Positions 1,161 through 10,021 of a stretch of 10,198 bases of DNA are shown piece after piece. This stretch comes from Candidatus Methylomirabilota bacterium (GTDB taxonomy: Bacteria > Methylomirabilota > Methylomirabilia > Rokubacteriales > CSP1-6). The position numbers were made by a program, and so were the translations under genes. The first letter of the stretch is position 1, and each line of letters begins with the position of its first letter. The DNA lies in NCBI GenBank assembly GCA_046726415.1, contig JBKPAK010000255.1, positions 1 through 10,198 of the forward strand. The letters are read 5' to 3'. Under the pieces are notes generated by a model that was not told the DNA's origin, ran no database searches, and saw only the letters and a list, made by a program, of their open reading frames with translations.

Positions 1161-2555
1161 GTGAAGCGGCCTGACCGTCGTCCCCCGAAGAAGTCGATGT
1201 CCCGCCCCTCGGGCCTCACCCGCCTGAACCCGAACGCCGCCGGTATCGATTGCGGGTCCGAGGAGCATTACGTTGCCGTCCCCGCCGACCGAGACGCCAC
1301 CCCCGTGCGTTCGTTCAAGACCTTCACGGCGGACCTCCACCGTCTCGCCGATTGGCTCATCGCCTGTGGCGTGACCAGCGTGGCCATGGAATCGACCGGA
1401 GTCTATTGGATCCCGCTGTACGAGATCCTCGAGGCCCGGGGCCTCGACGTCGTCCTCGTCAACGCACGTCACGTGAAGAACGTCCCGGGCCGCAAGACCG
1501 ACGTCGTGGACTGTCAGTGGCTCCAGGAGTTGCACAGCGTCGGGTTGCTGCGCGGCAGTTTCCGACCCACCGCTGCCGTCGCGACCCTGCGCGCCTATCT
1601 GCGTCACCGGGAGACCCTTGTACAGAGCGCCGCCACGCACGTCCAGCGCATGCAGAAGGCCCTGGTCCAGATGAACCTCCAGCTGCGACGGTGATCAGCG
1701 ACATCACCGGCGTCACCGGACTCCGCATTCTCCGCGACATCGTCGCCGGGCACACCGATCCCCACGTCCTCGCGCAGCATCGGGACCGCCGGTGTCAGGC
1801 CTCGGCGGCGGAAATCACGGCGGCCCTCACCGGGCATTACCGTCCCGAGCACGTTTTCGTGCTGCAGCAGAACCTTGAGCTCTTCGACGCCTTTCAGCGT
1901 CAGCTGGCCGCCTGCGATGCGGCGATCGAGACCCATCTCGACACGCTCGTCGCCCAGGCGCCAGCCCCGCCGCTGCGTTGCCTGCGCCGCGAACACGGAG
2001 GAAGCCGCGCGACAATGAGCCGCAGTTCGAGATTCGCACCCCACTCCACCAGCTGACCGGCGCCGACCTCACCCAACTTGACGCCATCGGCCCCTACAAT
2101 GCCCTCCGTCTGCTCGCCGAGATTGGCACGGACATGAGCCGCTGGCCACCGAGAAGCACTTCACCTCCTGGCTAACCCTGGCCCCTCACAACAAGATCTC
2201 CGGGGGGCGACTCCTCAGCTCCAAGACGCAGCCTTCCGCCAACCGGGCTGCCGGGATCCTGCGCATGGCGGCCATGAGCCTCGGCCGCACGGAGACCGCG
2301 CTCGGCGCCTTCTATCGCCGCTTGGCCTATCGGGTGGGCAAGGCCAAAGCGATCACGGCGACGGCCCGCAAGCTCGCCATCCTTGTCTACCGCACGCTCA
2401 AAGATGGCTTGGTCTATCACGATCCCGGAGCGACCGCCTACGACACCCTGCACCGCCAGCGTCTCATCCGGCGGTTGCGTCAACGTGCGACCGATCTTGG
2501 TTTGGCCCTCGTCAATCGCGCAACCGGCGAACTGCTCGAAGGCAAAGTTTCTTAG
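1161..2555 (+). pseudogene. IS110-family DEDD transposase/recombinase, split by three frameshifts (~1690, ~1970, ~2150)
   Basis: ORF pieces 1161-1694, the end of 1250-2056, 1978-2175 and 2265-2555 join into one protein. Motifs: AAGIDCG, VAMESTGVYW, VKNVPGRKTDVVD (DEDD), LDAIGP, W(P)TEKHFTSWLTLAP-NKISGG (catalytic Ser loop), KAITATARKLA. The ~2150 shift is a lost C in a C run, so sequencing error is possible. Confidence 0.93.
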
Positions 2556-2559
2556 GAGA

Positions 2560-2658
2560 AGGCGCGACAAAGGCCCGGGTGACGGAACACCCGTTCTCAG
2601 CACCCCGCCCTCCGCGCCGGTCCTCGCCGATCCTCGCGTCCGCCCCCCCACGGACAGC
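2560..2658 (-). repeat. oriIS-like repeat copy 1 (IS91/ISCR-type end), terminus altered where it abuts the IS110 right end
   Basis: Matches 6620-6717 with 3 substitutions and 1 indel. The minus strand ends GCCTTTGTCGCGCCT and then runs into TCTCCTAAG of the IS110. Confidence 0.8.
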
Positions 2659-2970
2659 ACCGTGCTCGCCGGCACCGACTGTCCGAATGTCGCGATCGTC
2701 TCCGGCTTCTCACTGCACCGGGAGCTCGAGCTGCTGGTGCGCGCCGGCCTCTCGCCGATGGGCGCGCTGCTGGCCGCGACCAGCCGTCCGGCCACGCGGC
2801 TCGATCGCGGTGGCGAGTTCGGCACGATCGCCCCTGGCCTCGCCGCCGACCTCGTCCTGCTCGACGCCGATCCCCTGGCCGACATCAGGAACGTCCGGCG
2901 CATCGACCGCGTCATCGCCCGGGGCCGGGTTCACGACCCGCGGGCCCTCGTTGGCGCGGCGCGCCCATAG
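2659..2970 (+). pseudogene. Amidohydrolase-family protein, C-terminal fragment only
   Basis: TVLAGTD...GFSLHRELELLVRAGLSPMGALLAAT...GTIAPGLAADLVLLDADPLADIRN...VIARGR is the typical amidohydrolase C-terminus. The 5' part is replaced by repeat copy 1. Confidence 0.88.
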
Positions 2971-3419: not shown

Positions 3420-5501
3420 TCAATCATCGTCATCATCGTCGTCGTCGTGCCTGCCCCCGGCTTTGCACAGGCGATCAGCGACCGCGTTCGCCGTGCGGTC
3501 GGAGCTCGTCGCGGGAAGGATATTGCGCGCCGCGGCCTCGGCGATGACCGTGTCCGCGTCCTCCTGAAGGAGATGGCGCTTCTTGACCGCCTTGATCGCC
3601 GCAGTCCTGACCGCGCACACGTAGCCGCGCTGCGTGCCGTAGCGCTCCTCGAGCGACAGGCGCGGATCGCCGGAAGCGAGCCGCTCGGCTTCTGTCGTCG
3701 CGAAGGGTATGTTCTGGCCGATCAGCGCGCAGTCCTCGTTTTCCGCGTACGGTGCGCGCCGCAGCGCCCAGCCGGTATGGGTAGCGATCGGCGCCTGCAG
3801 GAACGGATGGCGGAGTCCGGCGACGTCGTTCCCGTCGGCATCGGTCTTCGCGACGAGTACGGCGTAGAACTTGCCGGGGATTTCCATATTGGGCAGGCTC
3901 GTGGTGTCCTTCACCGCGACCGGGTTGTACCAGCCGGTGTAGTTCACGCCGGGAATCTCGGGGAAGCCCTGCACCGATTGCGGCAGCGAGGGCACCGCCG
4001 TGCCGTCCTTCACCCTCGGGTACTGGCTCTTCGGCGGCTTCTTGCCGCGCGTCGCCCAGTCGTCGAGCGCAAGGTAGAGCGCGCGCACCGCCATGTTGTG
4101 CGGCAGCGGGTTCGAGAGCTGCTGGCAGGTCGGGCTCGGTTGATTCGAAGGCCCGTGCTGGGTGCTGGAGACTAGGTACACGCGCACGCCCTTCGGCAAC
4201 CTGATGTCGAGTCCCTGCCCGTCGCTGGTGACCAGGAACAGGGGCTTGAGGTAGACCTCGTTGCCGCTGTCGGTGTGCATCACGTTCGGGCAGGTGTGCG
4301 TGCGCCGGCAGCGGGCGAAGATGCCGTCGGTAAGGCCGCTGATCGGGTCGAAGCGCACCTCGTAGGTGAACGGGAACTCCATCTTGGCGCTGAGATGGCG
4401 CTGGTAGCTGCGGCCGGTGGCGTTGGTGTCGCCGAAGCGGTCGTTGCTCGCGATGGCGTGCGCGCCGGAGATCTTCGGCATGATGCCCTCGAACAGCTGC
4501 CGCCCGTCCTCGTCCTCGTTGAATCCCCAGTACGTGAAGCCCTTGAGGTAGCGGCCGCTCTGCGACGAGCCGTGGGCGATCACGTACTTGATGCCGTTCC
4601 CGAGCGGGTTGTCCGCCGAGTTGCTGTGGCGCAGGAACGAGATCACGTCGCGCGTGGCGGCGAGGCCGAGACCGAGGATCTGCGGGTCCTTCGCCGGGTA
4701 GACGAACTCGAACGCCGCGCCGGCGTCGTAGGGCGCGAGGAAGGGGTGCGTGCGATCGATCCGCACCGTGGTGTCGTTGACGTACGACCACACGTCCGTC
4801 GGCACGAGCACGCGCTCGACCAGCGGCCCGCCCACGAACTGCGTATGGTTGTGCACCAGCATCTTCGCCTGGCCCTGGTCGAGGTTGGCCGCGCGGTAGG
4901 TCAGACTGAACGTATTTCCCGGCGAAGTATCGAAGATCTGCTCGGTGATCGTGTGCTCGACCACCGAACTCCCATCGGGGTTGCGCGCGATCGGCAGCCG
5001 GGCGAGCGCGCGGTCGTCCCCCGGCGGCACCAGCCCCTCGTCCTCCCAGCCGGAGAACACCATCGTGTAGCCGCGGCGCATCAGCAGGCCGTTGCCGGCG
5101 TCGGCCGCCGTGGTCGGGTTGTTGCCGCCGACGTCGTTGAACGCGCCATGCCCCTTGTTGCCGCGGTTAACGACGTCGTAAAACATCCTGCGGTTGCCCT
5201 TCGCGAGGTCGATGGGCTTCAGGATGTGCACGTCGACCGAGTACTCGACCATGCCGCTCGCGTTGCGCGGCGCGAGGTTGATGTCGGTGATGAGCGCGTT
5301 GCGCCGGTCGGCCGGATCGACCTCGCCGTAGGCGCGCGCGAAGATCTTCTCGTACTGGCCGACGTCGCCGAACGCGAGGCCCCCGAACGTCGGCGACTGC
5401 ACGCTCACGATCTCGAGCCGCGTGATGCCAGCTTGCGCCAGCGACGCGGACAGTGCGAATACCGTGGCGACGGCCGCGCAGGTGAATTGCCAGCATTTCA
5501 T
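3420..5501 (-). CDS. Secreted alpha/beta-hydrolase-domain protein (693 aa)
   Basis: Long intact ORF. Likely start is ATG 5501, after AAGGGGG. Signal peptide ending AQA. Motifs GEVDP, YDVVNRG, GYTMVFSGW, GLGLAATRD, nucleophile-like GSSQSGR, DADGNDVAG, DPRLSLEERY. C-terminal poly-Asp tail. Confidence 0.88.
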   Translation of the reverse strand: MKCWQFTCAAVATVFALSASLAQAGITRLEIVSVQSPTFGGLAFGDVGQYEKIFARAYGEVDPADRRNALITDINLAPRNASGMVEYSVDVHILKPIDLAKGNRRMFYDVVNRGNKGHGAFNDVGGNNPTTAADAGNGLLMRRGYTMVFSGWEDEGLVPPGDDRALARLPIARNPDGSSVVEHTITEQIFDTSPGNTFSLTYRAANLDQGQAKMLVHNHTQFVGGPLVERVLVPTDVWSYVNDTTVRIDRTHPFLAPYDAGAAFEFVYPAKDPQILGLGLAATRDVISFLRHSNSADNPLGNGIKYVIAHGSSQSGRYLKGFTYWGFNEDEDGRQLFEGIMPKISGAHAIASNDRFGDTNATGRSYQRHLSAKMEFPFTYEVRFDPISGLTDGIFARCRRTHTCPNVMHTDSGNEVYLKPLFLVTSDGQGLDIRLPKGVRVYLVSSTQHGPSNQPSPTCQQLSNPLPHNMAVRALYLALDDWATRGKKPPKSQYPRVKDGTAVPSLPQSVQGFPEIPGVNYTGWYNPVAVKDTTSLPNMEIPGKFYAVLVAKTDADGNDVAGLRHPFLQAPIATHTGWALRRAPYAENEDCALIGQNIPFATTEAERLASGDPRLSLEERYGTQRGYVCAVRTAAIKAVKKRHLLQEDADTVIAEAAARNILPATSSDRTANAVADRLCKAGGRHDDDDDDDD

Positions 5502-5527
5502 GTCGTATCCCCCTTGTCTCTGGTCCC

Positions 5528-5642
5528 GAGCGTAGGCGCGACAAAGGCCCGGTTGACGGAACACCCGTTCTCAGCACCTCCCTCCCGCGCGGATGCGAAC
5601 CCCGGCAGCGACCGGTTCTCGCGGTCCGCCCCCCGATACAGC
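5528..5642 (-). repeat. oriIS-like repeat copy 2 (diverged), still attached downstream of the IS91 transposase remnant
   Basis: GAGCGTAGGCGCGACAAAGGCCCGGTTGACGGAACACCCGTTCTCAGCACC is near-identical to copies 1 and 3, with weaker similarity out to ACAGC (5638-5642). It ends about 230 nt after the transposase stop, where oriIS is expected. Confidence 0.8.
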
Positions 5643-5662
5643 GCGGACACCCAGCCTGTCAA
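5633..5662 (-). promoter_or_regulatory. Possible outward-facing sigma70-type promoter in the oriIS end
   Basis: Perfect TTGACA at 5662-5657, 18-nt spacer, weak -10 TATCGG at 5638-5633. It points toward the hydrolase gene. Confidence 0.3.
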
Positions 5663-5759
5663 GGGATTTTCTGCCGGCCAACGGAGCGCTGGACCAGGCG
5701 ATGGACCCGCCCCAAGACACGAGGGAGCAGGGGGCAGCGAACGCGATGTCAGGGTGTGC

Positions 5760-5982
5760 TCAGACGCCGATCGCCGCAACGTGGCGGGTGTTCAGCGCTG
5801 GCGCGAACGGCGGCGCCCGACCCGCTAGCTCTCGCGACTCGGCGAGAGCGGCCAGGATCGCGCGAATCGCGTCGGGGTCTTCGACCGTGGCAATCAACCG
5901 CAGGTGTCCACCGAAGCGCGGGGATGCCATCACGTCGATGTCGAACGCGCCGCATCAGATCCGCCCACGCCCAGTGGCGAGG
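5760..5982 (-). pseudogene. IS91/ISCR-family (Y2 rolling-circle) transposase, degenerate C-terminal remnant
   Basis: Manual translation with one frameshift: PRHWAWADLMRR/FDIDVMASPRFGGHLRLIATVEDPDAIRAILAALAESRELAGRAPP...GV*. This fits the W-x-x-L-x-RVF-x-D...CPxCGG...LIA...DP...RAPP tail of the family, with CxxC decayed to SPRF. Confidence 0.85.
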
Positions 5983-6106
5983 GACCTGTGCCTACGGGCT
6001 CCAGCATGGCTCCAGCGTGCGGGGCTGGGGGCTGACGTCATGGGCTGACGTCATGGGGACGGGGGCCAGCAGCGGGGAGCGGGGGCGGAGGGCGTTGATG
6101 TTGCCC
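5983..6106 (+). mobile_element. Second-type oriIS-like end in the opposite orientation, interrupted at its terminus by the IS1111-type element
   Basis: Ends in GCGTTGATGTTGCC, which aligns with GCCTTTGTCGCGCC(TAYG) of the other copies and with the ISCR-type oriIS pattern. G-rich, with short tandem repeats. Confidence 0.55.
6029..6054. repeat. 13-bp perfect tandem repeat GGGCTGACGTCAT x2
   Basis: Seen directly. Each unit contains the palindrome TGACGTCA. GGCTCCAGC is also repeated at about 5997-6016. Confidence 0.9.
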
Positions 6107-6319
6107 TCTATAAAGCGGCCGCCCTAGTCAAGCGCAAACTTCGGATGGCACACGTCCCTTGGTGTTTTCCGTTCGATGCCAAGCCGGGGCCGTCGACAGT
6201 CTGGGTCTCGAAGTGGCACGTCTCCCGGCCCCGGATTCCGCCAACCAGCGACTGGCCTCCTGCGTGACCAGGCGAGTTGGTGATGGTCATCACGCGCACT
6301 CCGCACGTCGGTGGCCTCG

Positions 6320-6520
6320 CGAGTTTCGTCATCCTTCTATTCGCGCTCTTCAGTGACGAGACGTTTCTCGTCGGCGCATGAGGGGAGTCGCGGACGTGGT
6401 GGGGCGCCATCTACGCTACGGCCTCGTAGTGCGGCCAAGGCAACATACGCGCTCCCGCCACATCGCCGTGAACTCCGCGAGCCCTCTGACGTGATCATCG
6501 CCGCGCTGGTGATCCCCTCG
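6320..6520 (-). ncRNA. Bridge RNA / seekRNA of the IS1111-type element (boundaries approximate)
   Basis: 5' hairpin GATCA...TGATC. Target loop: GTGGCGGGAGCGCGT[ATGTTGCCT]TGGCC-loop-GGCCGT[AGCGTAG]ATGGCGCCCCACCAC. Donor loop: CGTCCGC[GACTCCCCT]CATGCGC-GACGAGA/TCTCGTC hairpin-GCGCGA[ATAGAAG]GATGACG. The guides match the element junction. Confidence 0.8.
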
Positions 6521-6523
6521 TCA

Positions 6524-6616
6524 TTAGGCCGGGGCCGACGTCGAGGCGGCCGGGCGGGGGTGCCCACTCGTCTGTCGCGGCGCGAAGCTCGTGCCGTCGC
6601 GCAGCATCGCGTAGAG
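6524..6616 (-). pseudogene. IS110-family transposase, last 30 codons
   Basis: LYAMLRDGTSFAPRQTSGHPRPAASTSAPA*. LYAMLRDGT is a typical IS110/IS1111 C-terminal motif. Truncated by repeat copy 3. Confidence 0.75.
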
Positions 6617-6717
6617 CATAGGCGCGACAAAGGCTGGGGTGACGGAACACCCGTTCTCAGCACCCCGCCCTCCGCGCCGGTCCTCGCCGATCCTCGCGTC
6701 CGCCCCCCACGTACAGC
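6614..6717 (-). repeat. oriIS-like repeat copy 3
   Basis: Near-identical to 2560-2658. The minus strand ends GCCTTTGTCGCGCCTATG-CTC. Confidence 0.82.
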
Positions 6718-6743
6718 TCCGCGATCACCGCGGCCGCGACCCG

Positions 6744-7276: not shown

Positions 7277-7648
7277 CTAGTGTCCTGAATTAGAGATTCG
7301 ATGACAAAAGCGGGCGACGCGGGCCAGGATCTCATCCGCCGTCTTCGTCCACACGAACGGCTTGGGGCGCTCATTCGTAATGTCGATGTAGCGACGGATG
7401 GCCGCCTCCAGTTCCCGGGTGCTGCGGTGGACGCCGCGCCGAAGTTGTTTCTCAGTGAGGGCCGCGAACCAGCGCTCCACGAGGTTCATCCAGAAGCCGC
7501 TGGTGGGCGTGAAGTGGACATGGAACCGCGGATGGCGCACTAGCCAGCGGTGAATCAACGGGGTCTTATGCGTGCTGGCGTTATCAACGACCAGGTGAAT
7601 GTCCAGCTCGGCCGGGACGGCGGCGTCGATCGTCACCAGGAACTTCCG
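7277..7648 (-). mobile_element. IS630-family transposase C-terminal fragment with right end
   Basis: RKFLVTIDAAVPAELDIHLVVDNASTHK...HFTPTSGFWMNLVERWF...PKPFVWTKTADEIL. The stop codon overlaps the terminal GGACAC-TA; TA is the IS630 target. Confidence 0.93.
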
Positions 7649-7896
7649 AGAGGCAAATCCAGAGGATGCGGTCCTGGCGGCGGAGCCGCGGGCGCGAGAG
7701 CGACCGCTGCAGGACCATCAATTGATGGCGCAGAGCAACGTTCTCGGAGCGTAACGGCGGTGGAGCGGCCGAGAAGGGCGCGGAGGAAGGTCCAGACGCC
7801 CAGGACGAGGATCATTGCAGCTCCCAACGGTGAGGGATGAAGGGCTGGCCGAAATTCTACATCAGGCTTTTGAACGTCGAGTTTTTGACCGGGACA
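7647..7896 (-). mobile_element. Left end and N-terminal fragment of an integrase-core-domain (IS481/IS3-like) transposase
   Basis: Starts TGTCCCGGTCAAAAACTCG at 7896. GGAG RBS and ATG at 7815. With one frameshift it reads MILVLGVWTFLRALLGRSTAVTL/ENVALRHQLMVLQRSLSRPRLRRQDRILWICLS, the characteristic ENxALRHQLxVLxR N-terminus. Confidence 0.78.
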
Positions 7897-8093
7897 ACAT
7901 CCTCAAGGCGCTGGCCATGGGCGCGCAGGGCGTGTGCGTCGGCCGGGCCTACATCTGGGGACTCGGCGCGTTCGGCAAGCCCGGCGTCGAGCGCGTGCTC
8001 GAGCTGCTGCGCTTCGAGCTGCGCGTCGCCATGCAGCAGGTCGGCGCGCCGACGATCAAGCACCTCGTGCCGGCGCTGGTGCGCCGGGGTTAG
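7897..8093 (+). pseudogene. FMN-dependent alpha-hydroxy-acid dehydrogenase/oxidase, C-terminal fragment
   Basis: ILKALAMGAQGVCVGRAYIWGLGAFGKPGVERVLELLRFELRVAMQQVG. It begins exactly at the TGT end of the adjacent IS. Confidence 0.88.
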
Positions 8094-9535
8094 CCGCCGA
8101 CCGCCTTGAGGCCCGCGAGCTCCCTGGCCAGGGCGACGCACGCGCTCGTGTCGTAGGTGCTCGCGAGCCGCTGCTTGTTGGTCGCGAGACCGCCCACGTT
8201 GTACATCTCGAAGAGGAGCTGGCGGGAGCCGAAAGAGTCACAGGCGTACTCCCAGGCCAGCTTGAGCAGACGAAAGCGTTCAAGGGCCCCCTCATCGCGG
8301 GCGACAAAATAGCGGTGCAAGTGCACGCCGATGTCGGGATTGAGAAGATCGGCCTGGCCCGGGGCCATCAGGATGCCAGGGCCGCAGATTTCCCGGATAT
8401 GTTGCAGCACGGACGGATAGCGCTCGATCGCGAAGATGCGAGCCGCCAGGGCCGTGGTCGGGTTGGGCAGGGCCAGGCCGGATGGTGAGCGGACCGGATT
8501 CGCCTCGGCGGCCTGGATGAACGCCCGCAGGGTTTCCAGATAGACCATGGCATCGGCCAGGGCCGTCTGGACAGCCGGCTGTGTGGTGGTACCCAGCGAG
8601 TCGGCAATGGCGGCGCAGATGCCGAGCAGCACCTCGGCCTTGACGGCCATGCGCACCAGCACGTACCAGGGACCAAGACCGATCGCACCCTGAAAGAGTC
8701 GCGTCTCGAAAGCGAGATCGAGAGCCGGGGAGCGCCGCAGATAGAAGACCCGTTCCCACGGGATGAACACGTCGTCGAACACCACGATGGAGTCCATCTC
8801 ATCCCAGGACGGGCTGACCGGATGGTCCGCGGGGTTGGTGGACGCCAGCGACTCGCGGCAGATGACGTGGATGCCATCGGCGTTCACCGGCGCGGCAAAG
8901 TACACACTTTCTTCGGGCGTGAGGTCGGGCCGTGGCGCCGTCATGCAGAAGAGCTCGTTGGCATAGGGAGCCTGCGTCCCCACGCCTTTGGCCCCTCGCA
9001 CGATGATGCCGTCGGGACGCCGGGCCACGACCCGCAATGGCTCCTGCTTGGCCACCGGGTGATTCCGGTGATGCAAGGGATTGCTGAACACGGTTGCGAT
9101 GCTGCGATCATTCTCGCGGCAGTACTCGAAATAGTGGGCGGCGCGTTCGGCAAAGGCCGGGTCCTCGCGGCCCAGGAGCTCGCGCACGTCGTAGAGCCCG
9201 AGCACCACCGTCGCCAGGTGCTGGGGCAACCGAGCCGCCACGCCGCCCGCCCGGCGCACGAGACACTCGTACATCGACCGCTGTCGCGCGAGATCTTCCA
9301 CCGACCGCGGCAGGAGATAGGCCCGGCTCACTGGCTGGCCCGTGCTGGGCGATGGGACGGTCAGCAGTTCCTGGTGCGCCACGTCGTGCTGCAGGTCGTA
9401 GACGGCGGCCACGCTGCGCGCGCAACCGGCCAGCGCGGGGTGGGTGGTGACGTCCTCCACCCGCTGGCCCATCAGCCACAATCGGCGCCCGTCCCGGAGG
9501 CTCTCCAGATACTCCGCTCCCCGACGTATGGGCAT
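8090..9535 (-). CDS. 4-hydroxyphenylacetate 3-hydroxylase-family (HpaB-like) flavin-dependent monooxygenase, oxygenase component
   Basis: 481 aa with RBS AGGAGGT. Motifs GAEYLESLRDGR, VEDVTTHP, DGIIVRGAK, DEMDSIVVFDDVFIPWERVF, RFRLLKLAWE, FGSRQLLFEMY. Confidence 0.93.
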   Translation of the reverse strand: MPIRRGAEYLESLRDGRRLWLMGQRVEDVTTHPALAGCARSVAAVYDLQHDVAHQELLTVPSPSTGQPVSRAYLLPRSVEDLARQRSMYECLVRRAGGVAARLPQHLATVVLGLYDVRELLGREDPAFAERAAHYFEYCRENDRSIATVFSNPLHHRNHPVAKQEPLRVVARRPDGIIVRGAKGVGTQAPYANELFCMTAPRPDLTPEESVYFAAPVNADGIHVICRESLASTNPADHPVSPSWDEMDSIVVFDDVFIPWERVFYLRRSPALDLAFETRLFQGAIGLGPWYVLVRMAVKAEVLLGICAAIADSLGTTTQPAVQTALADAMVYLETLRAFIQAAEANPVRSPSGLALPNPTTALAARIFAIERYPSVLQHIREICGPGILMAPGQADLLNPDIGVHLHRYFVARDEGALERFRLLKLAWEYACDSFGSRQLLFEMYNVGGLATNKQRLASTYDTSACVALARELAGLKAVGG

Positions 9536-9576: not shown

Positions 9577-9960
9577 TCAGGCGCTTGGGAGCAGCTCGGC
9601 GCGGTAACTTCGCCGCAACGTGTTGAGCTTCAGCGGCACCGGCGAGCCGAGCCACATCGCGTAGATGCTGTGGTCATCGCCCGAGTCGTTGGTCAACGGG
9701 TGGACCAGCACGTCAAGGCCGTCGCGGTGCAGCATCAGCCACTCGACGACGGGCCCGAACTGCTCGGGCTTGAAGATGACCTGCACGTTGGCGACGGGAT
9801 GCGGTCCGATCGGCTCGTCACGGAAGCCGCCGAACTCGACCTTGAACTTCTCGCCGATGACGGCGCACAGCCGCTCGGCGGTCGGACGCGTCTTCTGCGG
9901 ATCGTAGTAGATGTGCGCGTGATAGCCCCGGTTCGCGATGGTGTCGGCAGCGTCGGTCAT
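9577..9960 (-). CDS. DOPA 4,5-dioxygenase-family protein (127 aa)
   Basis: YHAHIYYD, PIGPHP, WLMLHRDGLDVLVHPLT, DHSIYAMWLG. AGGAGG RBS before ATG 9960; alternative start at 10005. Confidence 0.92.
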   Translation of the reverse strand: MTDAADTIANRGYHAHIYYDPQKTRPTAERLCAVIGEKFKVEFGGFRDEPIGPHPVANVQVIFKPEQFGPVVEWLMLHRDGLDVLVHPLTNDSGDDHSIYAMWLGSPVPLKLNTLRRSYRAELLPSA

Positions 9961-10021
9961 CGTGCGTCCTCCTGGAGCGTTCGGGTCGTTTGCATCATAA
10001 GACATCTCGGAGGGTCTAGGC

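Follow-up and report, generated by a model that had tools for sequence, protein, structure and literature searches.

We analyzed a 10,198-nucleotide stretch of DNA from a Candidatus Methylomirabilota bacterium (hereafter, the window), which is the entire 10.2-kb contig C255 of a 98%-complete assembly comprising 7.6 Mb in 352 contigs. This contig is crowded with mobile-element fragments, one of which, on the minus strand at positions 6105-6616, is the 3′ remnant of an IS1111-type insertion sequence (IS). Our preferred reading, to which we assign a probability of roughly 80%, is that this dead remnant carries a guide RNA specifying the oriIS-side tip of ISCR/IS91-like elements, and that such a tip is where the remnant sits. 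An initial annotation, made from the sequence alone, had proposed a bridge RNA programmed against the oriIS of IS91-like rolling-circle elements. We searched 60 relatives and the genome of origin (G000), 61 genomes in all, for DNA related to the RNA region and aligned 26 copies; the right end could be placed in 20 of them and the left end in 10. Two entries come from genomes flagged as unpublished, namely one right-flank row (locus L038, genome G025) among the 20 and one transposase tail (L088, G011) among the 12 described below; our conclusions are independent of both.

The boundaries of the relic were set by alignment and by its junctions with the neighboring repeats. It is homologous to the 3′ parts of full copies on contigs C326, C27, C2, and C79 and spans ~512 nt. 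It retains 31 C-terminal transposase codons, the conserved region for the non-coding RNA, and the right end; the upstream part is missing and is not present elsewhere on the contig. The codons lie at 6524-6616 on the minus strand, where 6616 to 6524 reads MLYAMLRDGTSF... and closes with a TAA TGA double stop. Their translation (MLYAMLRDGTSFAPRQ...) aligns with the C termini of the DEDD transposases on C326 (...ILYALLRDGSVFEPQ...), C27, and C2, bearing out the annotated IS110-type transposase tail. The full homologues on these three contigs contain both DEDD_Tnp_IS110 and Transposase_20 domains, neither of which is kept in the relic. Between the stop (6524) and the right end (6105) are ~420 nt of non-coding DNA, as in the IS1111 group. 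The right end itself (6105-6124, minus strand) consists of the subterminal inverted repeat GGGCGGCCGCTTT and the tip ATAGAGG. Its aligned counterpart on C27 and C326 is GGCCAGCCGCTTTCATAGAAG, an inverted version of the ATGAAGCGGCTGGCC present at the left ends of those copies; in the homologues, the subterminal repeats form the pair ATGAAGCGGCTGGCC/GGCCAGCCGCTTTCAT. Because subterminal inverted repeats are combined with a long non-coding region 3′ of the gene, the architecture is that of the IS1111 group, and the relic is the remnant of an IS1111-group member of the IS110 family. It is itself non-functional, and as a dead relic the copy in the window is of no functional consequence.

The predicted bridge RNA/seekRNA scaffold occupies positions 6312-6479 of the minus strand, within the conserved non-coding region 3′ of the transposase gene. 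This region is 73-86% identical to its counterparts at seven other loci of the same genome and in 29 of the 60 relatives. Identity to the stretches that follow the transposase genes on C326, C27, and C2, and to three gene-less copies, is 73-77%. Homologous RNA regions were thus detected, including G000, in 30 of the 61 genomes. An RNAalifold consensus of the eight copies in the genome of origin contains 38 base pairs, 14 of them with compensatory changes, and recovers the two stem-bounded internal loops that had been annotated, with all four guides unpaired. In the single-sequence minimum free energy (MFE) structure, the two target guides pair with each other; the centroid structure leaves both open.

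The four guide strings also lie on the minus strand where they had been placed. The 5′ target guide, ATGTTGC followed by the core CT, is at 6446-6438 (ATGTTGCCT; one match, compared to 0.03 expected). The 3′ target guide, AGCGTAG at 6417-6411, is part of a longer string, (C)GT AGCGT-AG and then ATGG (6407-6420), in which ATGG matches the first bases of homologue left ends. In the second loop, the putative left donor guide GACTCCC-CT is at 6389-6381 (GACTCCCCT) and is conserved as GA(C/A)TCCCCT; the right donor guide, ATAGA-AG at 6340-6334, equals the right-end tip of the homologues.

Read in this way, the guides ATGTTGC-CT, as the complement of the right flank, and AGCGT-AG with the adjoining ATGG, as a repeat of the left flank, would specify the target ATGTTGC-CT|ACGCT. 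At the relic, the junction ATGTTGCCCTCTAT (6098-6111, plus strand) differs by a single base from the ATGTTGC-CT-TCTAT that had been predicted. The right flank at 6098-6105 on the plus strand, ATGTTGCC, equals the first eight letters of the 5′ guide, and the 8 nt that precede the core in the guide, when reverse-complemented, fit the relic's right flank at seven of eight positions. Thus, the left half and core of the predicted target stand at the junction; the right half disappeared along with the IS left end. In the 7.6-Mb genome, the full target, read as its reverse complement AGCGTAGGCAACAT, has three exact copies (on C270, C303, and C345), compared to ~0.06 occurrences expected for a random 14-mer on both strands. 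All three reside within uninterrupted versions of the repeat that flanks the relic.

The repeat occupied by the relic (5990-6104, plus strand) corresponds to the terminal ~115 nt of an ISCR/IS91-like right end, which we call the A-type oriIS region, and is cut at ...GTTGATGTTGC|C by the IS insertion. It is 88.9% identical over 54 nt to an end on contig C12 that terminates in ...GGGCGTTCATGTGGCCTACGCTC, 378 nt past a CPHCGG tail motif and on its strand. When searched with a profile of transposase-linked tips, this flank gave an end-anchored match (E = 0.027). The assignment of 5990-6104 as a transposase-linked end rests on homology to the C12 end. The relic lies antiparallel to the ISCR-like element whose right-end tip it occupies.

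The repeat family has two end types, A and B, which both finish ...CCTAYGCTC and are both ISCR-like: B-type ends follow the transposase tail of the window itself, and A-type ends follow the C12 tail. A B-type tip (5528-5590, minus strand), ...GGGCCTTTGTCGCGCCTACGCTC, ends at 5528, 374 nt past the tail motif on the same strand; its similarity to a sister copy on C18 ends exactly after GCTC. The initial annotation had pointed to this tip, its second oriIS copy, for the missing right half of the target, in the form GCGC-CT-ACGCTC, which is the reverse complement of 5528-5539. Although the tip CCTACGCTC is indeed shared, the subterminal GTCGCGC fits the guide at only three of seven positions, and the end that matches both halves of the target is the occupied A-type end at 5990-6104. 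Two further B-type copies are solitary. Copy 1 (2560-2662, minus strand) is a right-end body without the last tip bases and adjoins the right end of an IS110-group pseudogene (...GGAGA-AG|GCGCGAC). Copy 3 (6614-6720, minus strand) is a right-end tip with 98% identity to copy 1 over 89 nt. It adjoins the truncated transposase gene of the relic, and its tip ATGCTC (GAGCAT on the plus strand, within 6608-6620) overlaps the Met-Leu codons of the transposase tail. This contact could be the converse event, in which an ISCR-like element inserted into the IS, or could stem from a microhomology-based deletion.

Two arrangements of the tips were also recorded. Back-to-back, outward-facing tips of different subtypes, 178-580 bp apart, occur in the window (5528-6113) and at C18:7327-7889 and C303:11129-11306 (L017), forming a repeated unit that resembles a miniature inverted-repeat transposable element (MITE). 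At C160:449-601, a ~64-nt unit containing GGTTGACGGAACGTCCGTTCTCGGCACC, a B-type subterminal motif, is present in three tandem copies.

The guides of the homologues were compared with their flanks. Across 20 right ends, each copy's own guide matches its own right flank at a mean of 5.85 of eight positions, compared to 2.96 of eight for mismatched pairs, and none of 20,000 permutations reached the observed sum. Distinct guides pair with distinct flanks of their own (GAACGATT, GAAGTCC, GCGACATG, GCAAATCC, and TCGACATA). The misses are L037 and L042, which have broken right ends, and C326, C230, and C253, which match poorly. On the left, the 3′ guide reproduces the left flank and runs on into the start of the left end: guide and junction alike read GCGTAGATGG in C326, and other left junctions that repeat the 3′ guide are CGCATAG, ACGTAG, GACCCAG, and GGATAG (own compared to permuted partners, n = 10, p = 0.0001). 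As the copies are mutually related, the permutation p values on both sides are optimistic. [quoted passage not shown] The right donor guide, (G)AATAGAAGG, covaries with the right-end tip in four variants (ATAGAAG, AGAGAAG, ATAAAAG, and ATACAAG). Together, homology, the consensus fold, and guide-flank covariation support the identification of the region as a bridge RNA/seekRNA.

A sister subfamily with another target serves as a positive control. The guides of the C230 copy, GGCTTTT-CT and GACCC-AG, together agree at 14 of 14 bases with a conserved stretch (codons DRLFWVG) in the gene of an rve-type transposase. Since the C230 subfamily spells the site in which it sits, the guide-reading rule works. 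This subfamily (L004-L007) consists of copies at C79:2198-3440, C260:10007-10346, C253:316-700, and C230:20103-20500, which all lie within rve-type (IS481-like) transposase genes; the targeted gene is abundant, and three of the four copies consist of the guide RNA and right end without a transposase gene of their own.

Within this bacterial order, the IS1111-type relatives mostly carry the guides ATGTYGNC-CT and GCRT-AG, which vary in step with the subterminal part of ISCR-like tips (...GGGC.TTATGTC.CCTAYGC). In 13 of the 26 aligned copies, from 11 genomes, the 3′ guide is GC(G/A)TAG and matches the conserved CTAYGC tip. The lineage with these guides thus appears to home to ISCR-like tips.

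The targeted repeat was assigned to ISCR/IS91-like elements on several grounds. A decayed ISCR/IS91-type transposase C-terminal tail is present in the window (5763-5954, minus strand), in which the CPxCGG motif is mutated to SPRFGG and a stop lies just upstream. From 5954 to 5763 it translates as CGAFDIDVMASPRFGGHLRLIATVEDPDAIRAILAAL... and matches NCBIfam ISCR_clade_Ia at profile positions 454-489 of 509 (E = 4.9e-6). In tblastn searches, this tail was also detected on C298, where it is contiguous with Pfam Y2_Tnp matches; Y2_Tnp was found in 36 of the 61 genomes and, in the genome of origin, on three contigs. An objection to an IS91 identity, that Y2_Tnp occurs only on contigs without the repeat, was overturned by the correct-frame translation of 5954-5763. 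Among 12 ISCR-type tails from the genome of origin and its relatives, nine are followed on the same strand by the tip ...GGGC.TT...CCTAY, eight of them found by regular expression at a distance of 364-399 nt and one (L089) by eye. No tip was seen after the other three tails, which are on C298, where the contig end intervenes, C172, and C59. Similarity between copies ends just past the tip.

In plasmid elements, the CxxCGG motif is likewise followed by the tip, at 383 nt in ISCR2 and 408 nt in ISCR1. Of 22 positions compared, the ISCR2 tip shares 14 with the tips of C12 and L098, and the ISCR1 tip has the core TTTAT....CCTAT in common with the targeted tips. In the part of PMC6218425 that concerns ISCR1, its oriIS region is given as the 232 bp after the transposase gene. 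A full-length transposase in genome G046 matches ISCR_clade_Ia with E = 5e-112 (375 bits, under the curated cut-off of 925) and IS91 with E = 1e-26; over 96-99% of its length, it is 41-44% identical to the transposases of plasmid ISCR1 and ISVsa3 (ISCR2). Among 13 loci scanned, the six full-length ones in which the tip motif was found have one copy per element, always 3′ of the transposase gene, and no inverted copy was found at the left end in these six loci or at the left boundaries of two G046 copies. As there is a single downstream tip per element, the tip is not an inverted terminal repeat. The spacing in nine of 12 tails, the comparable spacing in ISCR1 and ISCR2, and the 14-of-22 likeness support the annotated link to the oriIS of IS91-like elements: the targeted repeat is best described as their right-end tip, "oriIS" is assigned by position and homology, and the tip would be expected to act as an origin.

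Three further identities for the repeat were rejected. Terminal repeats of rve-type (IS481-like) ISs do not fit, as the abundant IS of this kind, which neighbors some of the repeat copies, has ends of its own (CTGTCC...GGACAG) and the repeat lies outside them. A Tn3-family inverted repeat was discarded since no Tn3 transposase was found and similarity breaks on the wrong side. An attC site was discarded as there is no R′/R″ consensus by eye and no long hairpin.

One locus shows an insertion next to a full-length gene. On contig C3 of G046, the sequence after the complete-length gene for an ISCR-like transposase reads ...GGGGCCTTATGTCTC-CT|TCTATGAAGCGG, in which the right-hand part is an antiparallel IS1111-type right end; the sister element on C12 of the same genome is uninterrupted (...GGGCATTATGTCGACTATCAGC).

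A second IS110-family element in the window, this one of the IS110 group, bears on the same site. It is a frameshifted pseudogene with Pfam and NCBIfam IS110 matches (1162-2559, plus strand) that has lost its 5′ non-coding region; homologues in relatives cover 1162-2561 plus an upstream non-coding region of ~140 nt, in which a TTAGGAGAA segment reproduces the tip of the right end. The pseudogene's own right end, ...GTTTCTTAGGAGA-AG, adjoins an ISCR-like tip at 2559/2560, a position equivalent to that of the IS1111-type relic. Among four aligned copies from relatives, three keep the right end, and two of these three have tips that look ISCR-type as their right flank. In relatives (G001:C34, G018:C171, and G060:C79), IS110-group copies start ~210-380 nt beyond the end of the matched guide-RNA region, on the same strand as the IS1111-type copy and thus at its right-end junction or adjacent to it, a layout that suggests serial insertions into the same ISCR-like tip.

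A number of observations weigh against our reading. The relic lacks a transposase gene, its right end has decayed to ATAGAGG, and the core at its junction is CC instead of CT; with the left junction lost, only one half of the predicted target can be compared at the site itself. The relic RNA folded alone is unexceptional (MFE -66.5 kcal/mol, z = -1.12; 26 of 200 shuffles equal it), and a covariance-model scan of the window with Rfam 15 returned no bridge-RNA match or other relevant family, only a single chance match (E = 0.98). The left donor guide is mismatched, as homologue left ends read AG|ATGGGATGAAGCGG rather than AG|GGGAGTC. In its best register, which is offset by two bases, six of eight positions agree for the relic's guide type and seven of eight for GAATCCC guides, and the variable left-end base shows no covariation with the RNA among 10 left ends. 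Of the donor predicted by the initial annotation, GACTCCC-CT-TCTAT, the right guide is supported by four covarying variants; the left guide GACTCCC-CT is putative.

The targeted ends raise difficulties of their own. The bases beside the tip are YGCT(C), not the GTTC/CTTG of IS91; in PMC13181058, where it describes IS91 ends, these consist of subterminal palindromes with an adjacent GTTC/CTTG-type tetranucleotide. Folds of the tip as single-stranded DNA are insignificant for the B type (z = +1.29), and the A-type value (z = -2.19) includes bases of the inserted IS. Most targeted ends are solitary, without a nearby transposase gene. A recognizable ISCR-like gene or tail on the expected strand lies near the right-end junction in only one of 26 oriented loci (L043, in which tblastn placed the end of an opposite-strand tail at 275 nt from the junction) and in the separate G046:C3 locus. 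A regular expression for the transposase tail on the expected strand gave no matches in the 20 homologue right flanks. A profile of eight transposase-linked tips beats all 100 shuffled controls in only eight of the 20 right flanks, and five of 20 have E < 0.05; all eight matches are anchored at the junction. Finally, five homologues sit in the rve-type transposase gene and three (C326, C2, and L036) in unrelated flanks. The central proposal of the initial annotation, a readable bridge RNA programmed against the oriIS-side tip of IS91-like (strictly, ISCR-like) elements, is supported, for an element that is dead and for ends that are mostly solitary.

The flanks of these last eight homologues are what one would expect if there were no specialization on ISCR-like ends, the guides reflecting only the last successful insertion and the tips being over-represented because they are repeated. 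The seekRNA paper, in the portion dealing with targets, likewise stresses that each IS or IS group has its own target (PMC11187229). We regard this explanation as rather unlikely, since the 3′ guide GC(G/A)TAG, shared by half of the aligned copies in 11 genomes, fits the CTAYGC tip and since a separate IS110-group lineage occupies the same phosphodiester of such a tip, both in the window and in two of the three relatives' copies with an intact right end.

Another possibility is that the target is a dispersed repeat of the host with a GTAG head, similar to repetitive extragenic palindromic (REP) sequences, REPINs, or MITEs and comparable to the REPs targeted by IS621 and ISPa11, whose presence after some IS91-like genes is coincidental, making the IS REP-homing rather than oriIS-homing. 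The ~30 mostly solitary repeat copies beside ordinary genes and the inverted doublets of 178-580 bp (on C303, on C18, and in the window) would suit such a repeat, and the target ...GC-CT-ACGC is similar to the sequence ATCAGGCCTAC at which IS621 inserts into E. coli REPs, as given in the IS621 sections of PMC11208160. However, the 98%-complete assembly contains no Y1/RAYT transposase (PF01797), the single-stranded hairpins are insignificant, and five relatives have zero to three matches per genome, with counts at or below those of a reversed-pattern control in two of the three genomes with matches. A host REP would also not predict the fixed distance and strand relative to ISCR-type tails, or the likeness to ISCR1 and ISCR2. 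We therefore consider a host repeat improbable and rejected the REP/REPIN identity, given the missing RAYT, the insignificant folds, the few copies in relatives, and the link to ISCR-type tails.

That the guide-flank matches arose by chance or shared flank ancestry in a structured 3′ untranslated region or terminator is scarcely credible: although the single-sequence fold is insignificant, no Rfam model matches, and the relatives are non-independent, which makes the permutation p values optimistic, distinct guides fit their own distinct flanks, four right-end variants covary with the donor guide, and the layout and strand-match order are those of the IS1111 seekRNAs in the portion of PMC11187229 devoted to them.

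If the relic descends from an RNA-guided IS, its history may be reconstructed from the published family, from which we infer the following steps. The ancestor would have excised as a circle joining ...CATAGA-AG-ATGGGAT.... The RNA would be made and bound by the DEDD recombinase, and the complex would direct insertion, the first loop pairing with both strands of the ISCR-like tip and the second with the joined element ends. Strand exchange at the CT/AG core would then place the IS between ...GC-CT and ACGCTC, separating the last bases of the ISCR-like end, together with the conserved neighboring bases, from the body of the element.

According to the sections on ISEc11, ISKpn4, ISPst6, and ISPa11 in PMC11187229 (Siddiquee et al. 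2024) and PMC11208160 (Durrant et al. 2024), IS1111 elements that use seekRNAs or bridge RNAs likewise have a DEDD transposase, a long 3′ non-coding region, and subterminal inverted repeats. As described there, they also produce no target duplication beyond the shared dinucleotide, and their guides are naturally reprogrammed between relatives; the RNA contains a top-strand complement and then a bottom-strand target match (PMC11187229, same sections). The element described here differs from those presented in these parts of the two papers in its ISCR/IS91-like target, in being a gene-less relic, in its unmatched left donor guide, and in a second loop that is closed by the outer stem rather than forming a separate hairpin. 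IS621, to judge from the account of it in PMC11208160, is alike in its two-loop RNA, its CT core, a target of the form ...GC-CT-AC..., and a 3′ guide that extends into donor-matching bases. It differs in being an IS110-group element whose RNA precedes the gene, in its reversed strand-match order, and in having the host REP as its target (PMC11208160, same account).

Our reading also resembles that of IS1111-type elements whose homing, with a single orientation, is to an end or a recombination site belonging to a different mobile element. Here, however, the victim is a rolling-circle element (HUH, Y2) without inverted repeats, and the site is its oriIS-side tip. Compared to the right ends of ISCR1 and ISCR2 (ISVsa3) on resistance plasmids (L114 and L115; PMC6218425, where it treats these ends), the distance of the tip after CxxCGG is similar. 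The ISCR2 tip shares ...GGGCGTT.AT....CCTA... with the targeted ends, at the positions counted above. In contrast to ISCR1 and ISCR2, the elements described here form a distant clade in an uncultured soil lineage, carry no resistance genes, and are represented mostly by solitary ends. Full-text searches turned up no published IS110-family element that homes to an IS91/ISCR end; the supplementary target tables of PMC11187229 and PMC11208160 might list similar cases. The mechanism is thus a known one, and the target is one we did not find in print.

The targets known so far are attC sites, REPs, Tn21-type inverted repeats, and short linear sites. The RNA-guided recombinases of IS110/IS1111 elements are under development as tools for programmable insertion into genomes. 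In this setting, natural guides that can be read against an evolving target, the ISCR/IS91-like tip, provide examples of how guides are rewritten. The ISCR/IS91-like targets are, moreover, related to elements responsible for mobilizing resistance genes on clinical plasmids. Should the homing be real, the IS would be a natural marker of ISCR-like element ends, which are otherwise hard to define, and a case of one mobile element policing or exploiting another.

It is possible, though we put it forward tentatively as more doubtful than the homing itself, that the IS1111-type and the independent IS110-group lineages are specialized hyperparasites of ISCR/IS91-like elements across an order of uncultured soil bacteria, with guides that track variation in the tip. 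Under hyperparasitism of this kind, insertion would disable rolling-circle initiation or let the IS ride along.

Several other sequences in the window lie among these elements. Between mobile-element pieces are fragments of an amidohydrolase C terminus (2662-2931, plus strand) and of a DDE_3 transposase (7277-7636, minus strand); the C terminus of an FMN-dependent dehydrogenase is at 7815-8093 (plus strand). Three genes on the minus strand are intact. They encode an Abhydrolase_10 protein, whose start codon at 5499-5501 lies inside the listed open reading frame 3420-5564, an HpaB-type hydroxylase (8090-9535), and a DOPA-dioxygenase-family protein (9577-10005). At the contig terminus (10024-10198, minus strand), we detected the 3′ end of an rve-type transposase gene (...FYNEQRPHQGYRLLGHMPADLFWG...) together with its IS end, ...TCCGGACAG. 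The same rve-type sequence also precedes the truncated IS1111-type copy on C260.

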